Part shown: positions 23 to 6,331 of the stretch, piece after piece
How the letters are laid out: the number at the start of each line of letters is the position of its first letter
Numbering within the stretch: position 1 is the first letter of the stretch
Source of the DNA: a bacterium
Lineage (GTDB): Bacteria; UBA8248
DNA: 64,000 bases
Reading direction: 5' to 3'
Assembly: GCA_963692865.2 (NCBI GenBank)
Contig: OY843592.1
Coordinates: 3,808,001-3,872,000 of the forward strand
The notes under the pieces: model-generated
Seen by the model: the letters and a program-made list of their open reading frames with translations, nothing else
What the model was told of the DNA's origin: nothing
Database searches by the model: none
Made by a program: the position numbers and the translations under genes

Positions 23-1201
23 TCACCCGACGTTCCCGTTCGTCAGGTGGGCGCCGATGCTCCCCCCCACCCGGGTGGCCGCCTCCTTCTCTGCCTGGAG
101 CATCAGGTGCGTGTAGCGCGCCGTCGTCGTTACCGTCGCGTGCCCCAGGAGCTTGCCGATCGTGTAGAGGCTCTCGCCGAGCGCCAGAGCCCTCGATGCG
201 TATGAGTGCCTGAGGTCGTGGAGCCGCACGTCGGAGAGTCCCGCCCGCTCCCGGAGGGGCCGCCAGTAGTAGTGAAGACCCGTGAGGTTCTTTCCCGGCT
301 TTTGTCCGGCGATCACCCACGGGTTGTCCGGCTGCCGGGGCAGCTTGTCGAGAACCCCCCGCACGGGATTCGTCAGTGGAACCATGCGGGGACCCGCCTT
401 GGCGTCCCTGAGCCTGAGAACTCCCGCCGTGCGGTCCACGTCGTCCCATTTGAGGTTCAGTATCTCGTTCCTCCGGCACCCGGTCAGCATGAGGAGCCTG
501 ATCGCCGTGATCGCGGGCGGCCAGACTGAGCCCGCCGCCTCGGCGTCTTTGAGCGACCGGCCCAGGCGGCGGTATTCCCCGGGTGTCAGGAACCGCTCGC
601 GCGGGCGCGTCCTGTAGAGTGATGGTCTTCTGCACGGGTTCCGCCCGGGCGGTACCAGGCCCCACGCCTCGGCCAGGTTGAACATCCTGGAGAGGAGATG
701 GATCGACGTGTTGGCCCGGCTCGGCGTATCGCGGAGGCGGTGATGAAACGCGGCGACTTCCGCCCGTCCGATCCGGCCCGGCGCCATCCCGCCCAGGGCC
801 GGCAGGACGTGCTTGTCCAGTATGGCGCGGTACTCCACGACGGTGCGCGGCTTCAGGTGCCTTTCCACGTAAACGCGCATGAAGCGCTCGGCAACCGCCG
901 CCAGGGTGAGCTCCTCCTCGGGCGGCTTGCGTCCGGGGTCTTCGCCCCGCTTGATGCGGTCGATGACGAGGGCGGCCTGCTTCCTCGCCTCCCCGGTCGA
1001 CAGCGCCCCGTGCCGCCCTAAAGTCACGCGTTTTATCCCCCCGGGTCCCCTGGATTGCACCACGTAGGCCTTCCTGCCCGTAGCGTGGACGCGCACCCCG
1101 AAGCCGGCCAGGTCCCGATCCCAGAAGAGGGTGTCCCGGTTTTCGGTTTTGAGCGCGTCGACGGCGCGCTTGGTGAGCCTGAACTCGCTTCTCCTGGGCA
1201 T
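23..1201 (-). CDS. Tyrosine recombinase/integrase with N-terminal arm-binding (DUF4102-like) domain
   Basis: Catalytic R (GCRRNE), K (DAKAG), HDLRH, LGH and Y (ARY). N-terminal LTKRAVDAL...WDRDLAGFGVRV. Start moved to MPRRSEF (1201), which follows a GAGGGG RBS. Confidence 0.93.
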   Translation of the reverse strand: MPRRSEFRLTKRAVDALKTENRDTLFWDRDLAGFGVRVHATGRKAYVVQSRGPGGIKRVTLGRHGALSTGEARKQAALVIDRIKRGEDPGRKPPEEELTLAAVAERFMRVYVERHLKPRTVVEYRAILDKHVLPALGGMAPGRIGRAEVAAFHHRLRDTPSRANTSIHLLSRMFNLAEAWGLVPPGRNPCRRPSLYRTRPRERFLTPGEYRRLGRSLKDAEAAGSVWPPAITAIRLLMLTGCRRNEILNLKWDDVDRTAGVLRLRDAKAGPRMVPLTNPVRGVLDKLPRQPDNPWVIAGQKPGKNLTGLHYYWRPLRERAGLSDVRLHDLRHSYASRALALGESLYTIGKLLGHATVTTTARYTHLMLQAEKEAATRVGGSIGAHLTNGNVG

Positions 1202-1218
1202 GGCCCCCCTCGTTGAAC

Positions 1219-1327
1219 ATGTCATCAAAACGCATACCGGCGGCGTCAATCGATATCGCGTTTCCGCATGAACAGGCGTGGTCTCTCCCGCCTGATATGT
1301 CATCAAAACGCATATCAGCGGCGTCAA
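1219..1327. repeat. Two 31-bp direct repeats upstream of the integrase (putative arm-type or regulatory sites)
   Basis: ATGTCATCAAAACGCATAccgGCGGCGTCAA (1219-1249) and ATGTCATCAAAACGCATAtcaGCGGCGTCAA (1297-1327); 29/31 identical. Confidence 0.75.
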
Positions 1328-1466
1328 ATATGGGCGTATTCAAGCATAAACACGGCGGTAAACGTTCGGCGACAGGGTGACGGCCTGCTTTTCTCATCCC
1401 GGATAATCGAGGAGATTCCCTTGCGGGGGCTGGTAACGAGATTCGACATGTGCTAATCATGTCGGC

Positions 1467-3821
1467 ATGAAGATTTGCACGGAAGATGTTCAGGCGGAAG
1501 TTTCGTTGGTCGAGAGGCCGGATGACCCACGGCCTCATCCCCCCGGGTTGCCCGCAACCGCAGAGGCGTACTGGCGTTCGCTGTACGAGCGGGAGCGTGC
1601 GCGCGCGGAGGCTGCGGAGGCGCGCTGCGAGGAGTTGCGGTGGAAGGAAGCCGATTCCCGCTCCCGTGCGGGCAGGCTGAAGCGGCAGTACGACAAGTGC
1701 CGGAAGAAGCTCGAGGCGGCCGCCGGGGAGGCGAAGGAAGCCCGCCGCGCGGCGAAGGACGCGCTGTCGCTCAAGGCGGAAGTGGAGCGGCTGGAGAAGC
1801 TGCTCGCGGAAGCGGGGGTCGAGCCGCGCAAGCGCAGCCCGCTCATGTCGTTGCGCATGGAGGTCGTCCGGCTTCGCAAGGAGCTCTCGGGCGTGCCGTC
1901 GCCGGGAGAGGCGGAGCGGGTGCGCAAGGCCCTGGAGGAGCGCAGGGAGACGATTCGCGCCCTGCGCAAGGAGGCCGGCCGGCGGGAGAAGGAGATTGTC
2001 CGGCTGGAGGAAGGATTGGCCCGGGAGAAGCAGAAGTCGGCGGCTCACAAGGAGACCATCCGGGAACTGGACGAGGAGGCCATCGGGCTCTACAGGAAGT
2101 TGCGGCGATTGCGCGACCAGGCGGAGGTGGTCGAGTCGTTGTCCGCGGAGGTCTACCGTCTTAAAGTCTCCCTCGGTGCTGCGGACATCGCCAGGGAACG
2201 GCTGAAGGCGCGGCTGTTGCGCGCGATGGAGGCGGCGCGCTCGAGGCCGCCGTCGCGTGGGGACGAGGAACTGCGCAAGGCCCTGGGGAGGTCGCGTCGT
2301 CAGAAGACGGCGCTCAGGTCGCTGTCCCGGGAGAACGCCCGGCTGTCCAGAGCGCTCCGCAGGTCGGAGACCCGCCGGGCACGGCTGGAGGCCGAACTCG
2401 CGAAGCTTCGCGCCACCGGAGCGGCGCTGGCGAAGAGGCTGTTCGGGCGCAAGAGCGAGCGGCAGGAGAAGCCGCGCTCGGACCGCAGGCGCGGCGGGCA
2501 GCCCGGCGCCCGGGGCCACGGGCGGACTCCCCGGCCCGCGCTCGATGAGAAGACCGAAGTCCGCAACCCGCCGGCCGATGCGCGCGTCTGCCCCTGTTGC
2601 GGGCAGCCCTACGCGGCCAACGGCGCACGTGTATCGAGCATTATCGAGATCGAGGTCTCGGCCCACAAGCGCGTCATCCACCGTCCGAGGTGGCGGCGGG
2701 GGTGCGAATGCGCATCGTCTCCCGCCGAAGTGTCGGCGCCGCCCGCGCCGCGCCTGTTCGCGGGTACGCCTTACGGGACGAGCGTGTGGGCGCTCTTCCT
2801 GTTCGAGCGCTACGCCTGCTTCCGTCCGCTGCGCCGGGTCGCCGCGTGGCTCTCCGACCAGGGGCTCCCGATCTCGGCGGGCACGCTGGGCGACAGCATG
2901 CACCGGTTCACGCCGCTGTTCGAGCCGCTGGCCGGGGCGATCCTCTCCCGCCAGAACGAGGCGGCGCTGCGCCACGGGGACGAGACGACCTGGCGCATAC
3001 AGTCGCTTCGCGAGCAGGGACGCTCGAGCCGCGCCTGGCTGTGGACGTCGGTCAGCACGGACTCCGTCTACTTCCACGTCGACCCCTCGCGGTCTGCTGA
3101 GGTCGCGATGAAGCTCTTCGGCGCGTCCGGCCGCCATACGGTCCTCGTCTGCGACCGCTACAGCGCCTACAAGAAGCTGGCGCGCGAACTCGACGGCGCC
3201 GTAATCCTGGCCTTCTGCTGGTCGCACCAAAGAAGAACCATCATCGACTGCGCCGCCGGCGAGGAGCGGCTGACGCCGTGGGGCGAGAGATGGATCGGGC
3301 GGATTGCGAAGCTCTACCGCCTGAACGATGCGCGCCTGGCCCGTTACGACCCGGGCGCCGAACGACAGGGCGCGGCGTTCGACGCGGCGCAGACTGCGCT
3401 CGAGAAGGCGCTCGATAGCCTGTTCACGCAGGCCCAAAGTGAACTGGCCGCCTTGCCGGCGCAGGCGCCCGAGGGCAAGGCGCTTCGCTCGCTGCTGAAC
3501 CACCGCGAGGGGCTGAGCGTCTTCCTCGAGCGCCCATGGGTGCCTATGGATAATAACCAATCGGAGAGATTGCTTCGGGGTCCCGTGATCGGCAGACGCC
3601 TCTCGTTCGGCTCCGACAGCGAGGCCGGCGCCCGGTTCACGGCGATGATGTACTCCGTCCTCGGTACGCTCTCGTTAAACGGCATCGACCCGCTCCGCTG
3701 GCTCGATGCATGGCTCACGGCCTGCGCGGAGGGCGGCGGCCGGGCGCCCGGTGACATCTCGTCCTGGCTGCCCTGGTCGATGAGTGAGGAGCGCAGGCGC
3801 GCCCTCAAGGCGCCGGGATGA
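1467..3821 (+). CDS. IS66-family DDE transposase (TnpC-like) with long N-terminal coiled coil
   Basis: LFGRKSE, GGQPGARGHG, CPCCG zinc finger, HGDET, VCDRYSAY, CWSH and DNNQSERLLR motifs. Exact start uncertain. Confidence 0.93.
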   Translation: MKICTEDVQAEVSLVERPDDPRPHPPGLPATAEAYWRSLYERERARAEAAEARCEELRWKEADSRSRAGRLKRQYDKCRKKLEAAAGEAKEARRAAKDALSLKAEVERLEKLLAEAGVEPRKRSPLMSLRMEVVRLRKELSGVPSPGEAERVRKALEERRETIRALRKEAGRREKEIVRLEEGLAREKQKSAAHKETIRELDEEAIGLYRKLRRLRDQAEVVESLSAEVYRLKVSLGAADIARERLKARLLRAMEAARSRPPSRGDEELRKALGRSRRQKTALRSLSRENARLSRALRRSETRRARLEAELAKLRATGAALAKRLFGRKSERQEKPRSDRRRGGQPGARGHGRTPRPALDEKTEVRNPPADARVCPCCGQPYAANGARVSSIIEIEVSAHKRVIHRPRWRRGCECASSPAEVSAPPAPRLFAGTPYGTSVWALFLFERYACFRPLRRVAAWLSDQGLPISAGTLGDSMHRFTPLFEPLAGAILSRQNEAALRHGDETTWRIQSLREQGRSSRAWLWTSVSTDSVYFHVDPSRSAEVAMKLFGASGRHTVLVCDRYSAYKKLARELDGAVILAFCWSHQRRTIIDCAAGEERLTPWGERWIGRIAKLYRLNDARLARYDPGAERQGAAFDAAQTALEKALDSLFTQAQSELAALPAQAPEGKALRSLLNHREGLSVFLERPWVPMDNNQSERLLRGPVIGRRLSFGSDSEAGARFTAMMYSVLGTLSLNGIDPLRWLDAWLTACAEGGGRAPGDISSWLPWSMSEERRRALKAPG

Positions 3822-3825
3822 CGCC

Positions 3826-4698
3826 GTGATCGAGTGCCGCTACTACGGACGCGACTTCACGAGCGAAGAGATGGCGCTGCTGCGCGCGCTGATCGCAGGC
3901 CCCCCGGCGCTCAACCGCCACGCGCTCTCCAGGGAGTTCTGCCGGCGCATCGGCTGGTACAAGCCCGACGGCGGGCTCAAGGACATGATGGCGCGGGTGA
4001 CCATGCTCGCCATGGACAAAGACGGCCGGATCACGCTACCCCCGCCGAAGTGGCGCCAGAACCGGCCCGGCCCGATCGTCTTCGGACCCGACACCGAGGC
4101 GCCCCTCATCCCGGCGCCCGGGACCCTCGACGAGGTACGCCCCCTCGATATGCGCATCGCCGTGCGCGGGACCCGCGAGGGCAGACTCTGGAACGAGTTC
4201 GTCGCCCGCTACCACTACCTCGGCTACAAGACCCTCGTCGGCGCCCAGATGCGCTACGCCGTCCTCGACCGCGGCGGCAGGCCCCTCGCCATGCTCGGCT
4301 TCTCCACCGCCGCGTGGAAGCTCGCCCCGCGCGACGCCTTCATCGGATGGACGCCCGAATTGCGCGAGAAGAACCTCCCCCTCGTGGTCGACAACCCGAG
4401 GTTCCTCATCCTGCCGTGGATCAAGATCCCCAACCTCGGCTCCCACATCCTCGCCATCGTCCGAAGGCGCCTGCCCGGAGACTGGACCGAGCGCTACAAC
4501 ACGACCCCCGTGCTCATCGAGACCTTCGTCGAGACGCCCCGCTACACCGGCGCCGTATACCGGGCCTCGGGATGGATCCGCGTCGGAACCACACAGGGCC
4601 GTGGACGCTACGACAGGCACAAACGCTTCGACAAGCCCAGGAAGGACGTCTGGCTGAGACCGCTCCGCAACAACTGGAAGCACGTCCTCAACCGCTGA
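3826..4698 (+). CDS. DUF4338 (DruA-like) protein inside the IS
   Basis: HYLGY, RFLILPW..NLGSHILA, ETFVE and GAVYRASGW..G.TQGRGR.D motifs. GTG start 4 nt after the transposase stop. Confidence 0.85.
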   Translation: MIECRYYGRDFTSEEMALLRALIAGPPALNRHALSREFCRRIGWYKPDGGLKDMMARVTMLAMDKDGRITLPPPKWRQNRPGPIVFGPDTEAPLIPAPGTLDEVRPLDMRIAVRGTREGRLWNEFVARYHYLGYKTLVGAQMRYAVLDRGGRPLAMLGFSTAAWKLAPRDAFIGWTPELREKNLPLVVDNPRFLILPWIKIPNLGSHILAIVRRRLPGDWTERYNTTPVLIETFVETPRYTGAVYRASGWIRVGTTQGRGRYDRHKRFDKPRKDVWLRPLRNNWKHVLNR

Positions 4699-5113
4699 AA
4701 CAACTCCCGTCACCCTGTCGCCGAACGTTTACACACGGCGAGCGCGCAAGAGACAACGGCCAGGAAAATATCAGCTTAAAATAAATGATAACAGATATTT
4801 ATATTAGATGAGCGCGTTCAGCCGCATCAGCGCCGGAGCGGCGAATTCATTTCAACCTTACATCTATTCTTTGGAGAAAGACGGAATGGCGCGGCCATTT
4901 TCGCAGGCCGGAAGAGTGTTTGCGCAACCGGTTTTTTATCCGGTTCGGTTGATAAATATTTCTCGATGCGCAGGGCGACATTGCAAGAGAGGGGGTAACC
5001 GGAGAGCGAGAAGCCCTGCAATGGAAGCAAAAGAAACGCGAATGAAATCAAGGACATCGAACATGAAGGAACGCGGCAACATTTTTTCAACCTCCAGTGA
5101 GGAGAAATACACA

Positions 5114-6331
5114 ATGAAGAAACTTCTGCTAGCTTTATTCGCGCTGACGCTGCTCGTGGCGTTCACCGCGCCTTCCTACGCGGCCGACTTCAAGTACAGC
5201 GGCTGGTTCCGGGTGCGCGGCATCGGCCAAGACAACCTGGACGGGAATGACGAGGATGACGACAACCGGAACAACATGGACTGGCTTTACCGCCCGAAAT
5301 TCACGGCGAAGAGCAAAAACGTCACCGCGATGTTGGAGTTCAATCTAGGCGGCGACTTCGAAGATGGCCCGGACGGTGCCGGCAAGCGGCCGGCGGTGTC
5401 CGTCAACAGATGGTTTGCCGACCACGCCATTCCGGGCAGCGCGGTCCGCATGCGTTGGGGCAGGTGGGACTTCGCCGGGCCGGACGGGGAAATCTTCGAC
5501 AACAACGGCTGGCACCGCGAACAAGGCATCGCGCTCTACGGCAAGCTCAGCAAGAACGTCTCGCTCAGCATGTTCCACACCAAGGAGATAGACGACAAAG
5601 GCCCCGACAACGAGGACAAGGCGGATTACTTCGCCAGCCTCTCCATCAAGGCGAGCCCCGCTCTCACCCTCACGCCGTGGGCGGCCAACTCCCGGGACGG
5701 AGCGGACGACAGCTACAACTACAGCTACCTCGGCCTGCACGCCAAGGGCAAGATGGGCGTGATCGGCCTGAACGCCTCGGGCGTCTTCCAGAGCGGTGAC
5801 CTCACCGACACCGAGGAGATCTCGGCCTGGGCGATCCTGGTGCGGACTACCAGCAGCTTCGGCAGGATGAAGCTCACGGGCCACCTCACCATGCTCTCCG
5901 GCGACGACAACGCCGCGGACAACGAAACCAATACATTCAAGTTCCCTTCAGGCGCCGGCTCGATCCACGGCGGCCTCTTCATGAGTTCGCGCAGTTTGGC
6001 GGGTTATGGCGCTCACTACGGCAGGAACCTGTCGCATTTGAACGGCGCGGTCGTGGTGGGAGTCTCGGTCGATTACAAGGTCTCCAAGACCTTGATGTTC
6101 CGCGGCGCCGTGTACTCCCACAACGCCGCCGAGAGTTCCACAGCGGCCGGCGCGGACGACGCGAAGGACTTCGGCACCGAGCTCAACGCGGGCCTCAAGT
6201 GGCAGATCTACCCGAGCCTCTATCTTGCCATGGATGCCGGCATCATGATGCGCGGCGATTACGGCAAGACGGCCAGCCAAGAGATCGACGACGCCTGGAT
6301 GGCCGCATGGCGGTTGAACCACAGCTTCTAG
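5114..6331 (+). CDS. Outer-membrane beta-barrel porin
   Basis: Sec signal MKKLLLALFALTLLVAFTAPSYA, amphipathic strands, C-terminal Phe (WRLNHSF), GAGGAG RBS. Confidence 0.85.
   Translation: MKKLLLALFALTLLVAFTAPSYAADFKYSGWFRVRGIGQDNLDGNDEDDDNRNNMDWLYRPKFTAKSKNVTAMLEFNLGGDFEDGPDGAGKRPAVSVNRWFADHAIPGSAVRMRWGRWDFAGPDGEIFDNNGWHREQGIALYGKLSKNVSLSMFHTKEIDDKGPDNEDKADYFASLSIKASPALTLTPWAANSRDGADDSYNYSYLGLHAKGKMGVIGLNASGVFQSGDLTDTEEISAWAILVRTTSSFGRMKLTGHLTMLSGDDNAADNETNTFKFPSGAGSIHGGLFMSSRSLAGYGAHYGRNLSHLNGAVVVGVSVDYKVSKTLMFRGAVYSHNAAESSTAAGADDAKDFGTELNAGLKWQIYPSLYLAMDAGIMMRGDYGKTASQEIDDAWMAAWRLNHSF

Follow-up and report, generated by a model that had tools for sequence, protein, structure and literature searches.

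The window analysed here, a stretch of 64,000 nt of contig OY843592.1 (GCA_963692865.2; Bacteria; UBA8248; positions 3,808,001-3,872,000, forward strand), carries an IS66-family insertion sequence of 3375 bp (window 1358-4732), in which a long transposase gene is followed by a gene, hereafter ORF2, coding for a DUF4338/DruA-family protein whose GNAT-fold domain is a sister of the Mom protein of phage Mu. We estimate at about 55% the probability that this element is a recently active insertion sequence in which ORF2 is an integral partner of the transposase, marking DNA or a protein, and not a cargo gene.

Boundaries and mobility of the element

As the first-pass annotation had read from the letters, perfect 26-bp terminal inverted repeats and an intact 8-bp target-site duplication enclose both genes (Table 1), which are the sole two genes between the repeats with family matches. 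At any given pair of positions, the probability that an exact 8-bp duplication arises by chance is 1 in 65,536, and the runner-up inverted pair within 1000-5200 has 25 nt at 80%. A second copy, located elsewhere on the same contig, is identical over 3375/3375 bases, and its flanks (tCCGACAA and cCCGACAA) are alike at 7/8 positions. The intact ends and duplication, together with this identical copy, support the view that the insertion is recent and that the DUF4338 gene moves as part of the unit.

Elements of the IS66 family typically have the end motif GTAA and generate an 8-bp duplication. The hallmarks of IS66-type elements, namely, an 8-bp target duplication and inverted repeats some 20-30 nt long that begin with GTAA, are present here and in at least 12 relatives, whose ends, found de novo, follow a GTAA[ACG]CGTT... 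pattern; a query with the window's own end sequence recovers close variants only. Among sequencing runs kept as contigs, the contigs are interrupted precisely at 1358 and 4732, the behaviour that a repeat should show. In these contigs, the ORF2 part gathers several-fold more summed depth than the transposase part, contributed by relatives that are at least 90% similar. An RNA-library run also contains contigs of a relative at 90-95%, which is no proof of transcription. The window copy is situated upstream of a P4-type integrase, about 157 bp from its start, if this start is the ATG at 1201; homologues of this integrase, sought within the fetched flanks, occur at 4/40 loci only and define no insertion rule.

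Table 1. Features of the insertion sequence, in window coordinates
Feature	Positions	Strand	Details
Target-site duplication, left copy	1350-1357	.	ACACGGCG; same letters at 4733-4740, read directly
Terminal inverted repeat, left	1358-1383	+	GTAAACGTTCGGCGACAGGGTGACGG; 26 nt, 100% complementary to right arm
IS66-family DDE transposase, 784 aa	1467-3821	+	PF03050, NF033517
Transposase N-terminal arm, ~344 aa, outside IS66 model	1467-2498	+	Weak coiled-coil-type matches (SMC, EzrA, Cnn_1N)
Zinc-finger-like CxxC...CxC and DDE catalytic region, aa 345-784	2499-3821	+	Conserved columns
ORF2, DUF4338/DruA-family protein, 290 aa	3826-4698	+	PF14236 match
ORF2 N-terminal domain, winged-helix-like, aa 1-75	3826-4050	+	
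ORF2 GNAT-fold, Mom-like domain, aa 101-290	4126-4698	+	Fold and profile comparison
Terminal inverted repeat, right	4707-4732	-	Pairs with 1358-1383
Target-site duplication, right copy	4733-4740	.	Exact 8-bp repeat of ACACGGCG, read directly

The transposase and the known IS66 groups

The transposase matches DDE_Tnp_IS66 (PF03050; 1.3e-54, 186 bits, cut-off 23.1) and NF033517 'IS66 family transposase' (7.4e-85, 285 bits, cut-off 180), the latter covering residues 345-752 only. Its N-terminal arm, which appears to be coiled-coil-like, is the fastest-evolving part of the protein (dN/dS 0.42-0.70). The invariant or near-invariant columns comprise C375, C378, C413, C415, D505, D563, C584/W585/H587 and N696/N697/E700, among which D505, D563 and E700 presumably form the DDE triad.

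The canonical IS66 group (e.g. IS66, IS679) is organised as tnpA-tnpB-tnpC. Our element shares with it a DDE_Tnp_IS66/NF033517 transposase above the curated cut-offs, the GTAA ends and the 8-bp duplication, but differs by the extra arm of about 344 residues and by the DUF4338 gene that follows. No tnpA or tnpB lies inside the ends, and a genome-wide search for TnpB_IS66 (PF05717) gave 0 matches (controls were positive in 3/14 genomes), so that the lack of canonical accessory genes, noticed in the first reading, holds genome-wide for tnpB. Since the genome has no IS66 tnpB and contains an identical second copy, the two-gene unit must have moved recently without the canonical helpers. The ISBst12 group of the family consists of single-ORF elements, the transposase being their sole gene; our element resembles them in having an IS66-type transposase that works without tnpA/tnpB, but unlike them possesses a coupled and more strongly conserved second gene.

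ORF2: anatomy, family and constraint

ORF2 starts 4 nt past the transposase stop codon (3819-3821), the likely start codon being the GTG at 3826; its reading frame is open over 3784-4698, and a start at the more upstream GTG (3784) would instead create a 38-nt overlap with the transposase gene. The protein matches PF14236 (DruA/DUF4338) with an E-value of 6e-38 (131 bits, cut-off 27), a family that gathers 8410 representative clusters at E<=1e-3. In the RefSeq entries matched here, such proteins are labelled 'DUF4338 domain-containing protein', or the domain is hidden within an 'ISAs1 family transposase'. ORF2 is under tighter constraint than its partner (dN/dS 0.11-0.28 vs 0.30-0.38 for the transposase), its GNAT core and N-terminal domain being equally constrained. 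A complex prediction with transposase residues 345-784 and ORF2 returned a score of 0.00, uninformative in either direction.

Kinship with phage Mu Mom

ORF2 has the GNAT fold that defines the GNAT superfamily, and the earlier suggestion of a GNAT/Mom-like protein is borne out by fold and profile comparison with controls. Phage Mu Mom (PF25680; PDB 8bv8) is itself a GNAT, and draws on Gly-tRNA(Gly) when it modifies adenine in double-stranded DNA. When the ORF2 and Mom families were compared profile to profile (hhalign), the match was clear (E 1e-5, probability 82%, 152 columns; controls 0.2-0.65), whereas the single Mom sequence gave a weak hhalign result (E 0.019, probability 2.4%), the clear result coming from the family profile only. 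The Pfam Mom model, which gives Mu Mom itself 253 bits, found no ORF2 match at E<=10, and a PDB sequence search with the ORF2-family profile yielded nothing (best E 0.9).

ORF2 and Mu Mom share 13% identity. Six of the seven residues of the Mom active-site set (H58, Y59, R111, S124, D149, R151 and Y159, in the published numbering) have counterparts in ORF2, namely, H130, Y131, R192, S206, E/D236 and Y245, R151 facing the non-conserved P238. The counterparts of R111 and S124, both essential in Mom, are kept in 40/40 and 39/40 sequences, respectively. The essential HTH-like insertion of Mom (~175-209) is, in the alignment, mostly opposite gaps in ORF2, with W181 at a gap; ORF2 has its N-terminal winged-helix-like domain in place of this insertion. 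Both also differ in genetic context, Mom being located in a phage late operon and ORF2 in transposons.

Association with five transposase families

Had other copies lacked the DUF4338 gene, the two-gene architecture proposed in the first-pass annotation would have been in doubt. Among 35 further full-length ORF2 copies from the same small phylum, 34 are directly preceded by IS66 transposase sequence; with the identical second copy and the ends of the relatives, this makes the architecture real, recurrent and mobile. A catalogued IS66 subgroup whose second ORF has a known role was not found in the literature, to which the search was confined. The partnership is not peculiar to IS66 and extends to at least five insertion sequence families: in another class, 17/18 loci have the ORF2-type gene next to, or fused with, an IS66, IS4, ISAs1, ISKra4 or IS1634 transposase. 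In-frame fusions occur with at least three transposase families and obligate adjacency with five, the ORF2 sequences cluster by partner family, and the copy number reaches 14 per genome. ISAs1-type fusions lack the N-terminal domain and keep the enzyme core alone beside the DNA-binding domain of the transposase. No literature linking DUF4338 and IS66 was found, the accessible part of that on DUF4338 contains nothing on transposons, and a search by title for IS66, GNAT and transposase found no such pairing.

Possible roles of ORF2

Three roles had been offered for the DUF4338 gene, i.e., transposition cofactor, self-protecting DNA modifier or mobile defence cargo; the first is favoured by our analysis, and a defence cargo of the Druantia type is disfavoured. 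ORF2 is probably an integral and catalytic partner in transposition rather than defence cargo. In the mechanism that we propose, the element, devoid of tnpA/tnpB, encodes two coupled proteins, a long transposase (coiled-coil-like arm, zinc finger and DDE core) and the DUF4338 protein, the latter presumably made in step with the former given the 4-nt spacer. ORF2 would reach the DNA of the element via its own N-terminal domain, or via the transposase where both are fused, and may use an activated acyl donor, either acyl-CoA or, like Mom, an aminoacyl-tRNA. Its target could be either DNA or a protein belonging to the transposition complex, and the modification would license or restrain transposition. 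Dam methylation controls the transposition of IS10 and IS50, the mark being set by a host enzyme. By analogy, the transposase could here be gated by a mark on the DNA of the ends or promoter, but the element would encode its own modifying enzyme.

The kinship with Mom, the conserved catalytic residues and the high conservation of ORF2 would also suit a cargo gene, merely spread by the insertion sequence, for a Mom-like DNA-hypermodifying enzyme acting in trans to shield the host replicon from restriction, and Mom is itself described as an anti-restriction enzyme in the accessible text of PMC13219725. However, the in-frame fusions and the obligate adjacency are unexpected of free-standing cargo, and the clustering by partner family, the retention of the enzyme core next to the transposase in ISAs1-type fusions, and the lack of a Mu com-like regulator inside the ends make this explanation doubtful. 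Alternatively, ORF2 might be an architectural cofactor devoid of catalytic activity, which attaches to the ends or the transposase and aids complex assembly, its GNAT fold serving only as a scaffold or an acyl-CoA sensor. The winged-helix-like domain, the fusions placing ORF2 next to the DNA-binding domains of transposases, and the loss of the essential insertion and R151 of Mom are consistent with such a function, but the near-universal conservation of the R111 and S124 counterparts and a GNAT core as constrained as the N-terminal domain render it improbable.

With regard to anti-phage defence, ORF2 and DruA of type I Druantia have PF14236 in common, the Pfam family named after DruA, and DruA is called a GNAT domain in the accessible part of PMC10853773. 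ORF2 matches the PADLOC DruA model only marginally, however (E 4.2e-4, 17.5 bits, residues 153-245, i.e., about 90 residues), and is shorter (about 290 residues vs 407 model positions). The repeat-bounded unit contains the transposase and ORF2 with no further gene, hence none of DruB-E, and the partners are transposases instead, which makes a mobile Druantia-related defence cargo very unlikely. No assigned function of DruA was found in the literature, and the accessible text of the YprA/Druantia preprint covers neither its fold nor transposases. Finally, a GNAT-type toxin acting on charged tRNA and stabilising the element by addiction is scarcely credible, despite the GNAT fold and the binding of charged tRNA by Mom-like enzymes (accessible text of PMC13219725), as the ends enclose no gene of antitoxin size that could be its partner, and stable transposase fusions and a copy number of up to 14 per genome fit a toxin poorly.

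Significance

To our knowledge, little is understood about the few accessory proteins that insertion sequences have, and what TnpA and TnpB do in canonical IS66 elements is unclear. In the element described here, a single enzyme-like module replaces these helpers. This module surpasses the transposase in conservation and turns up alongside five unrelated families of transposase, in many cases as a fusion, which argues for a general layer of transposition biochemistry that has escaped description; transposase-linked Mom-like genes point to an undescribed helper of transposition. As a tentative and rather speculative extension, DUF4338 proteins might be Mom-like enzymes dependent on charged tRNA or acyl-CoA that set a covalent DNA mark at transposon ends or targets, DruA being a domesticated version of the same activity; if so, at least five families of insertion sequences would own a built-in chemical switch for transposition. 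The relationship to Mom, for which DNA modification with a charged tRNA was demonstrated recently, provides a concrete and testable chemistry, as well as a lead on DruA as a component of Druantia.

Organisation and mobility of the element

The perfect 26-nt inverted repeats delimiting the element, recognised from the sequence by the first-pass annotation together with the 8-bp duplication around the transposase and DUF4338 genes, form the longest such pair in window positions 1000-5200, where the runner-up is 25 nt at 80%. Between these ends lie two genes with family matches, namely, the transposase, which also scores 285 bits over residues 345-752 against the NCBIfam IS66 transposase model (cut-off 180), and ORF2. 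The most likely start of ORF2 is a GTG, since homologues begin at the equivalent position, 4 nt past the transposase stop codon; the recurrence of this spacing in relatives suggests that the two genes are translationally coupled. Between the left end and a neighbouring integrase gene are direct repeats that may belong to an integrative element, as its arm-type or promoter repeats. The ORF just right of the element, whose true start is probably later because a signal-peptide-like stretch is internal to it, may encode an outer-membrane protein.

Features of the element and its immediate surroundings (window positions)
Feature	Positions	Details
P4-type tyrosine integrase gene	23..1201 or ..1327, minus strand	Phage_integrase, Arm-DNA-bind_3
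53-nt direct repeats	1197-1249, 1275-1327	77% alike
Target-site duplication	1350-1357, 4733-4740	ACACGGCG, directly outside the inverted repeats
Terminal inverted repeats	1358-1383, 4707-4732	perfect 26-nt pair
Transposase ORF	1467-3821	784 aa; DDE_Tnp_IS66, 1.3e-54
ORF2	3826-4698 (most likely)	290 aa; Pfam DruA/DUF4338, 6e-38
ORF right of the element	4808-6331	507 aa; no Pfam match

That the whole is a recent mobile unit, as had been proposed, is borne out by a second copy elsewhere in the same genome (G000; 8 contigs, 97% complete), identical at 3375 of 3375 bases and flanked by tCCGACAA and cCCGACAA. In L002 (3-1015), this copy adjoins ThiF-like and DUF6527 genes. A search of the whole of G000 for PF05717 (IS66 TnpB), which detected the family in 3 of 14 genomes used as controls, returned zero matches, and the element therefore moved without this canonical helper being supplied in cis or in trans. 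The genome also holds a 177-bp remnant of an ORF2 3' end (L003, C1:2340556-2340732; 81% identical), probably what is left of an older, since decayed, copy of some related element.

The transposase, ends and duplication place the element in the IS66 family. However, it lacks both tnpA and tnpB of the canonical group, and carries two genes whereas the ISBst12 group has a single one, in agreement with the distinct two-gene architecture initially suggested. Our literature search found no report linking DUF4338 to transposons; members may be catalogued in ISfinder.

Distribution and partner transposases

Among 51 species genomes of the phylum, a profile built from 40 ORF2 sequences (A1) found matches in 14, G000 counted; with G000 set aside, 11 of the 22 other genomes of the genus are among them. 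There are up to 14 matches in a single genome. The 36 regions fetched around matches contain 35 full-length ORF2 copies. The first-pass annotation had raised the question of whether DUF4338 accompanies other copies, and it does: IS66 transposase sequence lies directly upstream on the same strand in 34 of the 35 (L075 being the sole exception), unbroken and full-length in 22 and split or truncated in 12, and the GTAA[ACG]CGTT-type ends found de novo in relatives enclose both genes. Perfect 8-bp duplications flank at least 12 related elements. Two of these come from a genome of Candidatus Foliamicus (Pseudomonadota) and encode an ORF2 and a transposase that are 76% and ~57% identical, respectively, to those of the window. 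A general tendency to insert upstream of integrases was not supported, a homologue of the integrase next to the window's copy lying within the fetched flanks of 4 of 40 loci.

In genome G026, a related element forms three tandem dimers (L055, L056, L057) with 3421 bp from start to start, that is, the 3413-bp element plus 8 bp; both copies in L055 are bordered on each side by an identical 8-bp sequence (GACTGTCG), an arrangement reminiscent of head-to-tail IS dimers. In three sequencing runs kept as contigs (X1, X3, X4) and examined over window 1000-5100, the contig depth summed over ORF2 (~3877-4561) was several-fold to twenty-fold that of the transposase gene. Near-identical ORF2 genes are common to many related elements of the same communities, the transposases of which have diverged.

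A phmmer search of 1.84 billion representatives with ORF2 yielded 8410 clusters at E<=1e-3, and 993 when the threshold was set to E<=1e-30. Of the 16 longest representative matches, ten are proteins that also contain a transposase domain, with IS66 DDE followed by DruA (P0111, P0127 and fragments), or DruA followed by Tn5-type DNA-binding, DDE and dimerisation domains (P0137, P0148, P0196, P0201). Thiodictyon plasmids carry DUF4338 inside a protein annotated 'ISAs1 family transposase', and as a stand-alone copy among integrase, IS91 and IS4 genes. On one of them, pTs485 (L015, 5348-11333), an insertion splitting a DUF2235 gene contains a DUF4338 gene, a site-specific integrase, and IS91-family and IS4-family transposases, hence several candidate partners.

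In the class to which the Foliamicus genome belongs, 15 of 400 sampled genomes gave ORF2 matches; two of these genomes, unpublished, were left out of all later counts. Pfam was run on 18 loci from 11 genomes, and NCBIfam on 15 ORFs taken from 11 of these loci. A transposase was present in the same or adjacent ORF at 17 of the 18 loci; at the eighteenth, the contig has 330 bp left downstream. These transposases represent the families IS66 (preceding ORF2 in L093 and L095, following it in L110 and L124), IS4 (adjacent in L121; fused in L112, L135, L136, L137 and L138), ISAs1 (GNAT core alone fused, without the N-domain, in L126, L129, L130, L132 and L133), ISKra4 (L108) and IS1634 (L120). A partial DUF4338 ORF beside ISAzo13-type transposase fragments (DDE_Tnp_ISAZ013) in L136 (3457-4629; G201) may point to a sixth partner family or to a mere pile-up of elements.

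When 29 ORF2-type sequences were placed in a maximum-likelihood tree, they grouped by partner family: the tree implies 10 label changes, where 9 is the minimum and shuffled labels average 19.1 (0 of 200 shuffles as low), although relatedness inflates grouping of this kind. The IS66-downstream and IS66-fused forms make up one clade (support 92/95). The picture is one of old and stable partnerships rather than random hitch-hiking.

Relationship of ORF2 to Mom

The AlphaFold2 model of ORF2, computed from the 40-sequence alignment (pLDDT 92.8), shows a C-domain (101-290) joined through a linker to a small N-domain (1-65). One paper, on another subject, describes DUF4338 as a GNAT domain (PMC10853773). 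The A1 profile had no match among PDB sequences, nor did the Pfam model of Mom, the DNA-modifying GNAT protein of phage Mu (PF25680), match ORF2. Since sequence methods alone do not reach the connection, profiles were compared with each other, using an alignment of Mu Mom and ten phage homologues. The earlier guess of a Mom/GNAT kinship gained support, as hhalign aligned ORF2 with the Mom family at E 1e-5 (probability 82%) over 152 columns across the whole GNAT core, compared with E 0.41 and 0.2 for reversed profiles, and 0.28 (against ORF2) and 0.65 (against Mom) for a RimI control family (14 sequences, same phylum).

According to a 2026 paper, Mom modifies adenine in dsDNA with Gly-tRNA(Gly), and its putative active site comprises H58, Y59, R111, S124, D149, R151 and Y159, among which R111, S124 and R151 are essential (PMC13219725). 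In the hhalign alignment, taking the paper's numbering as the GenBank protein plus 10, as deduced from matching residue identities, these correspond in order to ORF2 H130 (conserved in 39/40 sequences of A1), Y131 (30/40), R192 (40/40), S206 (39/40), E236 (D in 20/40), P238 (not conserved) and Y245 (37/40). Most of the essential HTH-like insertion of Mom is aligned with gaps. Within the GNAT superfamily, ORF2 therefore stands beside the Mom family as a sister and is not one of its members.

Proposed function of ORF2

In all seven pairwise comparisons, dN/dS was lower for ORF2 (0.11-0.28, with constraint on both domains) than for the transposase (0.30-0.38 for the core, aa 345-784; 0.42-0.70 for the N-terminal arm, aa 1-344). 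We infer that ORF2 is a partner of the transposase in the transposition of the element itself, because its constraint is the tighter, fusions recur in either order, it sits beside the transposases' DNA-binding domains, its N-domain is lost exactly where a transposase domain can substitute, and the ends enclose no other gene. A competing reading is that of anti-restriction cargo acting in trans.

The conserved Mom-type residues further argue for ORF2 being an enzyme; the rival here is an inert architectural cofactor. By analogy with Mom, its substrate may be DNA and its donor a charged tRNA or acyl-CoA, and a mark on the element's ends or target could gate transposition, in the way that IS10 and IS50 are gated by host Dam methylation. 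Druantia-type defence cargo and a GNAT toxin are further alternatives; the PADLOC DruA model matches ORF2 at no better than E 4.2e-4.

An enzymatic ORF2 working with its transposase would provide a chemistry open to testing, both for this apparently widespread and so far unexplained partner of transposases and for DruA, the Druantia protein that gave the family its name.
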